A stretch of DNA of 64,000 nucleotides from positions 3,863-67,862 of the IMG/VR virus record IMGVR_UViG_3300005340_000040. One strand, given 5' to 3'. The notes under the pieces were generated by a model that was not told the DNA's origin, made no database searches, and worked only from the letters and a program-made list of their open reading frames with translations. Below are positions 30,635 to 32,261 of this stretch, piece after piece (position 1 is the stretch's first letter; the number at the start of each line of letters is the position of its first letter). The translations under genes and the position numbers were made by a program. The stretch is from a virus.

Positions 30635-30838
30635 TCAACGCTGGGCTCTCCGACAGCTGAAGAAGCCTTCGCGCTCCAAGCGCTGGAGCTCGTCGTCCAG
30701 GGCCGTCAGGGAACCGCTTCCTGTCGACCTTCGTTGTGCAGCCTCCAGGCGTTCCGCCGCGGCGCGGGCCCGCTGCGGCCTCACGTCGCGCAGGAAGCCG
30801 GAGTTGGTCCACTTCAGGACCACGTCGTCATGGTGCAT
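30635..30838 (-). CDS. Small hypothetical protein
   Basis: ORF downstream of the odd tRNA. Confidence 0.55.
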   Translation of the reverse strand: MHHDDVVLKWTNSGFLRDVRPQRARAAAERLEAAQRRSTGSGSLTALDDELQRLEREGFFSCRRAQR

Positions 30839-30895
30839 GTGCTGTAATCAGTGCCTCGTGCTGCGCACCTTGGGCGCATCGCCCGATGGTGGCTG

Positions 30896-30968
30896 AGTCC
30901 CCGACAGGATTCGAACCTGCAACGCATCCGGTTGAAATCGGACCGCTCCGCCGTTGAGCTACGAGGAC
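30896..30968 (-). tRNA. tRNA with 8-nt anticodon loop (UUCA; possible UGAA quadruplet or UGA suppressor); amino acid unknown
   Basis: GTCCTCG TA GCTC AACGGCG GAGC G GTCCG ATTTCAAC CGGAT GCGTT GCAGG TTCGAAT CCTGT CGGGGAC T; all four stems intact. Confidence 0.85.
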
Positions 30969-30976
30969 GAGCTGCT

Positions 30977-31384
30977 TCACCCTGTGCTGTTCTTGCGACG
31001 TTCCAGGCGCGCCTGGTCACGTCGCGCTGCTTCTGCTGCAAACTCCCGTTTCATCCCTCGCCAATCGTCGGCCGCGACGCGTTCAGCGGCTGAACGCCAC
31101 GGCCGCAGCGTACCGTCCTCCGGGCTACCGTCCCAAGGGTCGTAGTCGAAGATGCTGACCGGGATCTTGAACTGCGAGAACAGCCAGTCGAGGCACCATT
31201 CGCACAACGAGAACTGGTAGAGCGTCATGTCGTCGAGGGCACCGTGGCCGTTTCCCGCGGTCGACAGGTAGCCTCCCCGCGCTTGCGCGTCGACCAACCC
31301 CCGAGGGGCCCGGCAGGGGTGCCCCTCGCAACCAAGCACGCACGTCAGCCCGCACAGGTTGCAGAGGGGCTCCTGCTCGCTCAA
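30977..31384 (-). CDS. Zn-finger hypothetical protein
   Basis: CNLCG ... FSLCEWCL; TTGA overlap with upstream gene. Confidence 0.75.
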   Translation of the reverse strand: MSEQEPLCNLCGLTCVLGCEGHPCRAPRGLVDAQARGGYLSTAGNGHGALDDMTLYQFSLCEWCLDWLFSQFKIPVSIFDYDPWDGSPEDGTLRPWRSAAERVAADDWRGMKREFAAEAARRDQARLERRKNSTG

Positions 31385-31740
31385 CCCGCTACCTTAAGCG
31401 CTAGCGGCAACGACCTGCACAGTTGGGACGTCTTCTCGTGGGGCTCGAGCGCGATCGCTGTGATTTGCCCACCGACGTCGGGCTCGCGGAACGCCGACCA
31501 GCGTATGCCCAGGTCCTTCGCCGCCGCGATGAGCCTCATGAGCTCGACCTCGTCGGCGACCGAAAGCAGCGCGAGGTAGTTCGACGCGGCGTGCCACTCT
31601 CGGTCGACGTCGGGGTGGTCGGCGGTGAACTGCCTCATCGCATGGCACGACTGCACGGCCTGGTACCCAGGCGCGAGGTCACTGCGTGTCACGAGGTAGA
31701 GCTTGTCGCCGGCCTTGATGGCCACCATGGTCGGGTTCAC
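31381..31740 (-). CDS. Pth2-like peptidyl-tRNA hydrolase family protein (second, divergent copy)
   Basis: KLYLVTRSDL.PG.QAVQSCHA, FREPD...ITAIALEP, LPLAL; GTG start overlaps upstream TGA. Confidence 0.85.
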   Translation of the reverse strand: MNPTMVAIKAGDKLYLVTRSDLAPGYQAVQSCHAMRQFTADHPDVDREWHAASNYLALLSVADEVELMRLIAAAKDLGIRWSAFREPDVGGQITAIALEPHEKTSQLCRSLPLALKVAG

Positions 31741-32114
31741 GATCCTTTTTCCTGCGGTCGACCGTGTGCCTGTTGCGGCCTTACCATGGCCATGACGTCC
31801 ACCAGCAGCGCTTCGACCGTCGCCGTCCTGGTCGACGGGGGCGCATCGCTGTGCTCGTTCAGCAGCGCTCGCAGCCTGCCGACGTCGAGCTGGTTGTCGG
31901 GTGAGCATCGTTCGATCCTTCCGTACGTGACGCCTCGCAGCAGCCCGTAGGCCACTAGGTGGTGGCGGGCATGGACCCCCAACCGTCGCTTGGCCTCCTG
32001 CAATCGGGCCCTACGAACGCCTGCGCACCGTGCGCCCAACGTAGCGAGCGAAACACCGGCCATGGTGAACCCACGGACCTTGGCGCGAAGCACCTGCAAA
32101 CCAATTGAGTACAT
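31737..32114 (-). CDS. Basic hypothetical protein (ARHHLVAYGLLRG..Y.RIE motif)
   Basis: Strong SD GAGGAGG before ATG 32114; coupled to the Pth2-like gene. Confidence 0.8.
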   Translation of the reverse strand: MYSIGLQVLRAKVRGFTMAGVSLATLGARCAGVRRARLQEAKRRLGVHARHHLVAYGLLRGVTYGRIERCSPDNQLDVGRLRALLNEHSDAPPSTRTATVEALLVDVMAMVRPQQAHGRPQEKGS

Positions 32115-32261
32115 GCTAGACCTCCTCATCAACGCTCAAAGCAACCACACCGTCGATCGGTAGCCTGCTCGAGGAGGTCCACGCACGCGCGCTTCAAGCG
32201 CATTGCATTCAGAGGAATCCGGACATGGTCGTACGGTAACTATCGACGCTCATGCGTACAA
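32112..32261 (-). promoter_or_regulatory. Promoter, leaderless uORF (MSGFL*) and SD-sequestering hairpin (translational attenuator)
   Basis: TTGTAC-N17-TACCGT, ATG 6 nt later at 32226; TGGACCTCCTCG (32181-32170) pairs with TGAGGAGGTCTA (32128-32117). Confidence 0.7.

Follow-up and report, generated by a model that had tools for sequence, protein, structure and literature searches.

Arrest peptides that carry the motifs RAPP or RGPP, such as ApdA, ApdP and ApcA and those encoded by upstream open reading frames (uORFs) of Streptomyces lividans, follow the paradigm of SecM in that they are encoded just upstream of a regulated gene and unmask its start site (PMC12992588 and PMC10951233, in their available portions). 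RAPP and RGPP are described in the available text as especially robust arrest sequences, which are not relieved by elongation factor P (EF-P) and which bacterial proteomes avoid (PMC12992588); both motifs are also described as arrest sequences in the accessible part of PMC10951233, and arrest peptides are the subject of two further papers, likewise available in part (PMC7897499, PMC10987492). The locus considered here has a related design. It occupies positions 30635-32261, on the minus strand, of a 64,000-nucleotide (nt) stretch of IMG/VR virus record IMGVR_UViG_3300005340_000040, which stretch is called the window in what follows (64 kb of a 67.9-kb contig; 64.7% G+C; phage-type content; 31 tRNA genes). 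A leader that holds an R-G-P-P motif precedes the gene of a basic all-helical protein and that of a PTH2-like protein, that is, one resembling a peptidyl-tRNA hydrolase, and a tRNA with the anticodon UUCA in an 8-nt loop is encoded downstream of both. In contrast to the known RAPP/RGPP peptides, the phage motif lies behind a stop codon, in leaders of the UGAA type also in another frame, such that it would be reachable only via the dedicated phage tRNA. Moreover, the phage chain would be about 15 residues long, with no hydrophobic segment and no secretion or membrane signal, and the downstream genes are not localisation machinery; because of this short chain and the absence of such a signal, release by a pulling force is not expected in the phage leader.

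The tRNA itself has its closest counterparts in SufB2, SufJ and SufD and in engineered quadruplet tRNAs, which, in the available parts of the sources, share with it the extra nucleotide of the anticodon loop and a net step of four bases. Those tRNAs are laboratory mutants or engineered molecules, whereas the phage tRNA belongs to a conserved natural family, of which 39 distinct members were aligned, has a dedicated and co-varying target in cis, and would read a quadruplet that contains a stop codon. A choice at UGA is familiar from the autoregulation of prfB, in which, as in the proposed phage mechanism, termination at UGA versus a +1 event decides expression. The phage leader, however, has neither the slippery P-site codon (CUU-U) nor the upstream Shine–Dalgarno (SD) stimulator of prfB; the shift is attributed to a tRNA occupying the A site, and output would come via an arrest peptide and not by completing an open reading frame (ORF). 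Leader-peptide attenuation and the T-box are similar in that a leader reports the state of a particular tRNA, but they sense the charging of host tRNAs at sense codons or through direct RNA binding, and they act mostly on transcription. In the phage, by contrast, a private tRNA would act as a key by way of recoding, with its effect on translation initiation.

Phage-encoded tRNAs that read stop codons are also known from recoded crAss-like and jumbo phages and from the standard-code jumbo phages XacN1 (two CUA tRNAs) and Atu_ph07 (UCA), both of which encode peptidyl-tRNA hydrolases as well, and for whose suppressor tRNAs the authors found no target genes (PMC5852040, PMC6102473, available text). 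The accessible portions of those papers draw no link between tRNA, leader and Pth (PMC5852040, PMC6102473), and a survey of jumbo phages, in its available part, discusses suppressor tRNAs only for recoded genomes; the present locus differs from these cases in having a specific cis target with no genome-wide recoding. In synthetic feed-forward circuits translation of a gene requires that a suppressor tRNA expressed alongside it read through its stop codon (PMC7969014, PMC13276491, in part), but these circuits are engineered and use direct in-frame amber codons, to which the phage design would add quadruplet decoding and an arrest-peptide relay. The literature search turned up neither a tRNA-gated arrest leader nor a natural tRNA that reads UGAA; Supplementary Tables S3/S4 of the XacN1 and Atu_ph07 papers may bear on loop sizes.

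The leader and its proposed cognate tRNA

An original prediction, made from the letters of the window alone, had listed a tRNA, a leader, its fold and a series of ORFs as parts of one unit, and all of these are present on the minus strand, the promoter as a candidate only. Along that strand the order is promoter-like element, uORF, hairpin, anti-SD:SD helix, basic ORF, PTH2-like ORF, Cys-rich ORF, tRNA and an ORF of 67 amino acids (aa). The parts from which the argument is built are as follows.

32233-32261, minus strand: promoter-like element, TTGTAC (32261-32256), 17 nt, TACCGT (32238-32233), then 6 nt to the uORF ATG
32208-32226, minus strand: uORF M-S-G-F-L with UGAA; ATG 32226-32224, TCC GGA TTC CTC, TGA 32211-32209, A 32208
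32189-32201, minus strand: small stem-loop GCGC/UUGAA/GCGC, which starts 7 nt after the UGAA and whose loop holds a second UGA-A (32196-32193)
32172-32207, minus strand: +1-frame stretch C-N-A-L-E-A-R-V-R-G-P-P, with R-G-P-P (CGT GGA CCT CCT) at 32183-32172
32111-32188, minus strand: predicted anti-SD:SD helix; 5' arm 32188-32171 including the G-P-P codons GGACCUCCU, 3' arm 32127-32111 including GAGGAGG and the AUG
30896-30968, minus strand: tRNA with a 5-base-pair (bp) anticodon stem and the 8-nt loop A-U-UUCA-A-C (ARAGORN and Rfam)

We propose that these parts make up a translational lock for which the tRNA is the key, a reading to which we give a probability of about 0.68. Ribosomes would start on the tiny uORF M-S-G-F-L and meet UGA-A, where release factor 2 (RF2) and the tRNA would compete. 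Were RF2 to terminate, the anti-SD:SD helix would stay closed, and neither the helical protein nor the translationally coupled PTH2-like gene would be translated. Were the phage UUCA tRNA, with its 8-nt loop and its gene downstream in the same unit, to take UGAA as a four-base step instead, the ribosome would pass into the +1 frame, probably helped by the hairpin 7 nt downstream, translate some nine +1 codons, reach the arrest motif Arg-Gly-Pro-Pro and stall there. The Pro codons CCU CCU are at the same time the anti-SD, such that the stalled ribosome would hold them and free the SD and the AUG of the basic gene, with the PTH2-like gene following via its overlapping stop and start (GTGA). If these steps hold, the output would therefore follow the decoding activity of the UUCA tRNA in vivo. 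We infer quadruplet decoding, stalling, unmasking, co-transcription of the parts and charging of the tRNA from sequence, the +1 step at the cognate four-base codon more particularly from the frames of the leaders, and the stall at R-G-P-P from the literature on that motif.

The evidence that carries this reading comes from related loci. The set comprises 103 relatives, or 104 loci with the window: 19 viral loci found by their PTH2-like protein (65-83% identity), 80 metagenome loci taken from 215 relatives among 375 pattern matches, and 4 genome-contig loci. With a leader caller that accepted only R-[G/A]-P-P within 1300 nt upstream, 67 of the 104 loci have a leader, 80 have one or more tRNAs and 56 have both, 44 of them non-duplicate, and in every one of these 44 the anticodon, the codon and the reading frame match. 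A UUCA tRNA goes with TGA-A and an R-G-P-P in the +1 frame in 23 loci (22 assigned automatically and L050 by eye), a CUA tRNA with TAG and a 0-frame motif in 18, and a UUA tRNA with TAA and the 0 frame in two, the leader of L072 being cut by the contig end. The remaining locus, L015, has the loop GGUUAUGU, which gives UUAU by a 2+4+2 reading, and here ATA-A leads into the +1 frame of R-G-P-P. Its leader (4470-4525; tRNA at 6315-6388), with the uORF ATG TCG ATA ATG TGA, is a sense-codon variant of the quadruplet; since the R-G-P-P frame can also be reached from a TGA-A that lies nine bases downstream, the assignment to ATA-A depends on the anticodon match alone.

The leader caller considered only positions compatible with the frame; the same relation emerges when every stop triplet up to 70 nt upstream of the Arg codon is counted in any frame, with offsets taken modulo 3 from that codon: in the UUCA loci TGA stands at offset 1 in 23 of 23 and at offset 2 in 3 of 23, and in the CUA loci TAG stands at offset 0 in 18 of 18, at offset 1 in 1 of 18 and at offset 2 in 3 of 18. 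One or two such odd tRNAs lie downstream of the PTH2-like gene on the same strand in all 19 viral loci and, across the loci with at least 1.5 kb of downstream sequence, in 67 of 70, at distances of 20-2011 nt and with no mixing of anticodon classes. On the best PTH2 tree the type of leader and tRNA changes eight times, with at least two of the changes forced by well-supported branches, and among the viral loci every one with enough sequence upstream of the basic gene shows the same leader design. In these comparisons, then, anticodon, codon and frame co-vary, and so do the sequences of helix and hairpin. Co-conservation of the uORF-TGAA, the +1 RGPP, the hairpin and a UUCA-loop tRNA had been put forward as the decisive test of the original prediction, and its outcome is positive (44/44 loci). 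The argument draws its strength from the complementarity of bases seen for four types of codon and not from the count alone.

Within the leader, the uORF ending CTC-TGA-A, the further in-frame TGA-A five codons after the first and the R-G-P-P of the +1 frame were confirmed at the coordinates given above, as had been predicted; an in-frame ATG at 32253 would give an 18-codon form of the uORF on longer transcripts. The base that follows TGA is A in all 31 distinct leaders of the +1 type, whereas each of the four bases occurs after TAG. Thirty of the 31 have TGC or TGT as their first +1 codon. Each leader has exactly one R-[G/A]-P-P site, with 63-81 nt from its Arg codon to the start codon in most cases. 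The spacer from UGAA to the Arg codon comes in seven lengths (15, 18, 21, 24, 30, 36 and 54 nt). Over 55 distinct leaders the Arg of the motif is written in six codons (CGT 30, CGA 11, CGC 7, AGG 4, CGG 2, AGA 1), and its second position is Gly in 50 and Ala in 5, these being the two residues of the known arrest motifs. The Pro codons are mostly CCT, which is the complement of the SD (50/55 for the first, 39/55 for the second). No start codon is conserved in the +1 frame, and the 0 frame is shut again by a second stop (TGA, TAA or TAG) in the related leaders. The seven spacers, the six Arg codons, the restriction to Gly or Ala, the lack of a conserved start and the closed 0 frame together argue, on the evidence of the codons, for translation of the leader in the +1 frame.

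The RNA structure of the leader is in keeping with this. The original prediction of a hairpin that sequesters the SD is borne out in that the minimum-energy fold covers both GAGGAGG and the AUG, and in that R-G-P-P doubles as the anti-SD with compensatory changes; in other words, the R-G-P-P site overlaps the predicted structure that masks the downstream SD, as is looked for in an arrest peptide. Duplexes between the motif region and the SD region have a mean of -14.2 kcal/mol in the 55 leaders, compared with -7.9 for shuffled partners. At the third position of the Gly/Ala codon the pair with the SD is A-U in 33 leaders, U-A in 11, G.U in 3 and C-G in 1, and the base is unpaired in 7; the exchange of A-U for U-A (33 versus 11) is compensatory, by which the predicted anti-SD:SD helix covaries. 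A spacer hairpin of at least 4 bp occurs in 30 of the 31 distinct UGAA leaders, with differing stem sequences. Roughly half of the minimum-energy folds place its start 5-7 nt downstream, and most of the others show an outer pairing from +1 or +2. Such a position of a hairpin after the UGAA resembles that of known recoding stimulators.

The promoter is a candidate suggested by a family pattern. Of 52 distinct related leaders, 32 contain a loosely defined element, TGTAC-N15-19-TAnnnN-N3-9-ATG/GTG, and the phages Catera and Myrna have TTGACA-N18-TACCGT/TACAGT-N6/7-start; a generic sigma-70 scan, however, called no promoter on the minus strand here. The candidate promoter would give a leaderless or nearly leaderless mRNA.

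Turning to the tRNA, ARAGORN places it at 30895-30968(-) with the four-base anticodon 'ttca', and Rfam model RF00005 scores 44.7 bits on 30896-30968 against a gathering score of 29. It stands alone as the 31st tRNA of the window, 21.8 kb from the last gene of a 30-tRNA array (1315-9119, + strand, ARAGORN); the predicted UUCA in an 8-nt loop, distant from the main array and on the opposite strand, is therefore upheld. The anticodon arm, GTCCG / ATTTCAAC / CGGAT, consists of 5 bp and the 8-nt loop; the gene does not include CCA, and U is the discriminator base. When 39 distinct homologues, all of which have the 8-nt loop, are aligned, 94.9% of the cells that make up the pairs of the cloverleaf are paired and 19 of 21 pairs show compensatory changes; none of 500 shuffles reaches the observed covariation, which collapses when the partners are slid. 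The three inner pairs of the anticodon stem are formed in all 39, as is the pair that closes the loop (25 G-C, 14 A-U), and U-U-C-A-A is invariant. The original prediction had allowed that the extra loop base might be an assembly error, a possibility ruled out by contigs of three other DNA runs (X2, X3 and X4), which span the anticodon loop with no indel or other letter, X2 and X4 spanning the whole tRNA. From the conservation of its pairs, the window tRNA is judged to be real and to be conserved together with its 8-nt loop.

Its features are not those of a selenocysteine tRNA (tRNA-Sec, SelC), since the variable region has 5 nt, the acceptor stem 7 bp and the T stem 5 bp, nor are they those of a classical opal suppressor, with UCA in a 7-nt loop and read-through in the 0 frame, since the loop has 8 nt and the 0 frame is closed by the second stop. 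The names that ARAGORN gives to the homologues ('ttca', 'tc' or 'Glu(ttc)') vary with the treatment of the stem over one common architecture. Compared with the phage's own tRNAs, the window tRNA is at best 77% alike (Thr, then Arg), which is uninformative for its amino-acid identity. The sole UCA tRNA with a canonical 7-nt loop (AUUCAAC) is that of L028, at 1043-1115, on a contig that begins inside PTH2 and hence has no leader. The leader of L024 is identical to that of L040; L024 has two CUA tRNAs with 7-nt loops in place of an 8-nt-loop tRNA.

Weight of the evidence and rival explanations

Several observations weigh against the reading of the locus as a lock with a tRNA as its key. Although L036 (UUA) and L040 (CUA) have this 5-bp stem and 8-nt loop as well, it is the 0 frame that their leaders require, which means that the size of the loop does not by itself impose a +1 step. 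(The tRNAs in question, at 3043-3120 in L036 and 2584-2657 in L040, have the geometry of the UGAA type, and the R-G-P-P stands in the 0 frame after TAA and TAG, respectively.) No leader was seen in 37 of the 104 loci by the R-[G/A]-P-P caller within its 1300 nt, many of these loci being cut by contig ends. The independent contrasts between leader types are few, two on well-supported branches and six on all, and a sign test on them is not significant, while the PTH2 tree has only 116 columns and 24 of its 41 inner branches are unsupported. The fold of the window leader is only modestly better than that of shuffled sequences (-59.3 kcal/mol, z -2.08; 5 of 200 shuffles as stable). In the profile alignment of the PTH2-like protein to structure 1wn2, the second Lys of 'KGK' falls opposite Tyr26 and the Asp of 'RDAG' opposite Glu86. 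Two RNA contigs from a rhizosphere metatranscriptome (X6) match 31189-31367 at 99% and 31896-32144 at 95-99%, which is no proof of transcription; their cover of the operon is partial, the uncovered parts being uninformative, and DNA carry-over is possible. Lastly, 17 of 75 gene calls end in TGA-A, and the +1 extensions behind them are not shortened (median 37 codons versus 49), from which it follows that UGAA decoding would have to be weak or context-dependent. The original prediction had itself entered the caveat that ordinary genes end in this way, and among the crude gene calls it proves correct.

That prediction saw in the locus a sensor of RF2, or of failed termination, which, once termination at UGA fails, as it might under an anti-translation defence, turns on rescue genes. 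The design necessarily sets the tRNA against RF2 at UGA, and the autoregulatory +1 frameshift of prfB is a precedent for sensing RF2 at this codon. Close relatives, however, have in this place UAG, a codon of RF1, or UAA, which both release factors recognise, or the sense quadruplet AUA-A, in each case along with the cognate tRNA, such that no release factor is shared among them; the locus could be tied to no defence gene or signal; and the P-site codon before UGA differs among leaders (CUC, UUG, UUC, GCC, GGC, UAC), with no slippery site of the prfB kind. Since the relatives use differing codons with matching tRNAs, the quantity sensed in common would be the activity of the tRNA itself, and sensing of RF2, which we think rather improbable, is not favoured. 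Of the original interpretation as a whole, the linkage of tRNA, stop context and arrest motif survives (44/44), whereas the sensing of RF2 or host defence and the label of rescue genes do not. A different question is whether the tRNA takes four bases at once. It might instead read UGA as a triplet, in the manner of an opal suppressor (U33-UCA-A37, with an extra loop base), and shift by +1 only later, at translocation or in the P site. In keeping with this, type-B loops (A-C-U-U-C-A-A-R) place the U before UCA where U33 would be, and the same loop geometry serves 0-frame leaders in L036 and L040; SufB2 is described, in the available text, as a +1-frameshifting tRNA with an extra anticodon-loop nucleotide whose mechanism is being studied, and CUN triplets are described, again in a source available in part, as being read by a tRNA-Thr of yeast mitochondria whose loop has 8 nt. 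On the other hand, the fourth base is A in 31 of 31 UGA leaders and is complementary to the invariant U before UCA, whereas any base may follow UAG. A later slip is, in our estimation, unlikely but deserving of some weight, and it would alter only the physical step and not the switch.

The remaining alternatives place the purpose of the unit elsewhere or deny the tRNA a part in it. The PTH2-like enzyme and the helical protein could act on the recoding tRNA by stripping its acyl or peptidyl form, with the leader as a negative-feedback gauge that keeps read-through low for the sake of other phage genes. The linkage of PTH2 and tRNA in 67 of 70 loci would suit such a homeostat, as would the in-frame UAG at the start of the PTH2-like ORF in five other phages (three or four lineages; see below). 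Were tRNA and PTH2 to form a closed loop by themselves, the loop would serve no end, and therefore one of the two must have a task outside it; a genome scan for read-through or +1 continuations, however, gave no target genes, and the TGA-A gene ends show no adaptation, for which reasons we hold this arrangement to be quite improbable. If, instead, the leader were an attenuator made of RNA only, GGACCUCCU would be kept merely as an anti-SD, the frame of R-G-P-P would be a by-product and the tRNA unrelated. Any anti-SD would resemble CCUCC, and covariation of the helix is expected here too. What such an attenuator leaves without explanation is the relation of frames over seven spacer lengths, which changes to the 0 frame in just those loci whose tRNA is CUA or UUA, together with the retention of Arg through six codons, AGA/AGG as well as CGN, and the alternation of Gly with Ala only; we rate it as very improbable. 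Scarcely credible, finally, is that the tRNA is either a general opal suppressor of a recoded (code-4-like) phage or a decayed pseudogene of tRNA-Glu(UUC). Recoded phages do carry suppressor tRNAs, according to the available part of the source, and ARAGORN labels several homologues 'Glu(ttc)', which it does by forcing mismatched stems. The genome, however, is not recoded (75 code 11 genes cover 88.8% of it, and ORF coverage falls from 83% to 70% when TGA is read as sense), the main array includes a canonical tRNA-Glu(UUC), and the 39 homologues keep compensatory pairing; Glu identity is moreover excluded because homologues switch to CUA or UUA.

Genes of the unit and their surroundings

The ORFs that follow the leader, together with the one beyond the tRNA, are these.

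31737-32114, minus strand: basic protein of 125 aa, all-helical in the model, its gene the first behind the leader (AlphaFold2, synteny)
31381-31740, minus strand: PTH2-like ORF, which begins at a GTG that overlaps the basic gene's stop (GTGA); 33.3 bits to PF01981, cut-off 23
30977-31384, minus strand: Cys-rich ORF of 135 aa, whose TTG start overlaps the PTH2 stop (TTGA) and which ends in TGA-A 8 nt before the tRNA
30635-30838, minus strand: small ORF of 67 aa after the tRNA; tblastn match in 8/19 loci; no Pfam or PHROG family

The family of the basic protein provides the first gene after the leader in both clades of the loci. Its AlphaFold2 model, with a predicted local distance difference test (pLDDT) score of 92.2, consists of a long helical hairpin and three helices. 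The sequence has no Pfam or PHROG family and no match in the PDB, Foldseek returned nothing for the fold at E <= 0.001, and the best hits of a wide structure comparison (Z 7.3 at most) were generic helical hairpins. An identity as a GerE/helix-turn-helix (HTH) protein was considered and rejected, the Atlas feature matches of 0.84-0.86 lying below the level to trust. Pattern scans of viral contigs gave no relatives of the basic protein, and tblastn on the related loci finds it in 17 of 19. A predicted complex of the PTH2-like and basic proteins scored 0.00 in a run with no controls, which counts neither for nor against binding.

That a Pth2-like gene forms part of the operon, as had been proposed, is confirmed by the PF01981 match, to which phrog_1866 can be added at 60.4 bits. 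Its profile also matches the archaeal Pth2 structures 1wn2 (E 1.5e-05) and 2zv3 (E 3.2e-05), as well as the Pth2 structures 1rzw and 1q7s. The Tyr and Glu found at the 'KGK' and 'RDAG' positions are invariant in the phage PTH2-like family, and the phage protein may, from these substitutions, have altered chemistry or an altered substrate. The second protein is thus PTH2-like by profile only, and, with a first gene that encodes a helical protein of no family, the description of the pair as ribosome-rescue genes in the original prediction was an over-reading. A zinc-finger protein had likewise been counted as part of the operon. The Cys-rich ORF in question belongs to no Pfam or PHROG family, has no tblastn match in any of the 19 related viral loci and gave no relative in a pattern scan of viral contigs; judged by these comparisons it is an insert specific to this phage and lies outside the conserved unit.

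Around the unit the loci share an order of NadR-like, macro-domain, basic protein, PTH2-like, tRNA(s), small ORF, PD-(D/E)XK nuclease and glycosyltransferase-like genes, and among the 19 viral loci the matches number 19 for the PTH2-like protein and for the nuclease, 17 for the basic protein, 8 for the small ORF and 0 for the Cys-rich ORF. A DNA search of the region against a phage collection gave no match. In the window the glycosyltransferase-like protein (415 aa, 28410-29657, minus strand) is unusually conserved for its neighbourhood, with 67-79% identity across contigs of 36-65% G+C. A distant clade of loci (L058, L063, L065-L068, L073-L078, L081, L084, L091 and L098) has leaders of the form M-x-D-Y-L-TAG-I-x-x-R-[G/A]-P-P, about 1 kb upstream of PTH2, with an extra gene of 187 aa (phrog_14850) between the helical protein and PTH2, and carries three or four tRNA-Thr genes in arrays further upstream, including one with the anticodon AGT.

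As regards the genetic code, crude gene calling under code 11 gives 75 genes that cover 88.8% of the contig, 47 of which end in TGA, and coverage by ORFs of high GC content at third codon positions (GC3) is 83% under code 11 and drops to 70% with TGA as sense. Because reading TGA as sense lowers the coverage and 47 of 75 genes end in TGA, there is no genome-wide recoding, neither to code 4 nor to code 15. The genome-wide scan for read-through or +1 continuation targets after stops produced only ordinary gene borders and antisense artefacts. Of the 12-mers that encode R-[G/A]-P-P, the whole contig (window coordinates -3862 to 64000) holds 27, none of which is in frame in the 75 called genes, and this fits the reported avoidance of the motif in proteomes. 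One of the R-G-P-P-coding sites, at 2653 beside a TTGTAC, was considered as another leader and rejected, for it lies directly after a tRNA-Thr, inside a hairpin and with no uORF. That hairpin (2643-2690, + strand) contains the TTGTAC and CGTGGACCCCCG, follows tRNA-Thr(tgt) directly and precedes a small membrane-protein ORF (ATG 2684); it is probably a processing or terminator hairpin that mimics parts of the leader.

PTH2-like genes with a possible UAG gate, and the meaning of the proposed switch

A simpler sibling of the design appears in five other phages. The PTH2-like ORFs of Catera, Myrna, Tenacibaculum phage pT24 and the huge phages LR756500 and LR756501 have an in-frame UAG at codon 2-3; that is, at most one sense codon stands between the start codon of the ORF and the in-frame TAG, and a CUA tRNA is found nearby. 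The ORFs and tRNAs, in coordinates of the respective loci, are as follows.

L105, 2983-3363: Catera gp153; CUA tRNA at 3614-3687
L104, 2974-3336: Myrna gp84; CUA tRNA at 3466-3537
L106, about 2978-3312: PTH2-like ORF; CUA tRNA at 4097-4165
L108, 2983-3366: PTH2-like ORF; CUA tRNAs at 5418-5491 and 5496-5571
L107, about 2960-3315: pT24 PTH2-like ORF; tRNA-Sup 2.5 kb upstream

The annotated starts in these phages fall after the TAG or, in pT24, at an internal Met, and in LR756501 the neighbouring ORFs are intact under code 11, such that only the PTH2-like ORF needs read-through of TAG. Judged by these reading frames, the PTH2 of cultured phages seems to be gated directly through amber suppression, for which termination at the TAG followed by re-initiation at GTG, ATT or ATA is the alternative. 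The apparently gated ORFs of Catera, Myrna and pT24 are a closer natural analogue of the synthetic suppressor circuits than is the leader of the window. Common to both designs, as the sequences would have it, is that the PTH2-like protein is made only when the stop-reading tRNA of the phage works.

Taken as a whole, we think it probable that a private phage tRNA, with a mainly or only regulatory role, reads UGAA (elsewhere UAG, UAA or AUA-A), drives a ribosome to arrest and thereby unlocks the pair of the helical and PTH2-like proteins. It is, together with this reading, likely that such a system would be the first natural and dedicated use of quadruplet decoding as a genetic switch, and, on the same joint footing, that a UAG-gated PTH2-like gene with its CUA tRNA sits unnoticed in cultured mycobacteriophages of cluster C, for which a review of mycobacteriophages, in its available part, mentions no suppressor tRNA. 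As to purpose, we offer only tentatively, and as the more doubtful part of the proposal, a feed-forward self-test by which the production of PTH2-like capacity for recycling peptidyl-tRNA, and of the helical partner, would depend on how active the recoding tRNA is.

The large phages that would bear the switch come from soil, freshwater and other habitats, and relatives in cultured phages of Mycobacterium smegmatis and Tenacibaculum make the idea directly testable. Four-base decoding has so far come from suppressor mutants and from synthetic biology; a conserved tRNA with a co-evolving target would, if the reading is true, show that evolution uses it on purpose, and would supply ready-made orthogonal pairs of tRNA and leader for genetic-code expansion and gene circuits. 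A tRNA that acts in trans would also add a new class of input to regulation by arrest peptides. For the phages themselves, the switch would link their stop-reading tRNAs to their equally unexplained PTH2-like genes, and it would give a concrete job to the puzzling suppressor tRNAs of standard-code phages, which in the case of XacN1 and Atu_ph07 their authors left unexplained.

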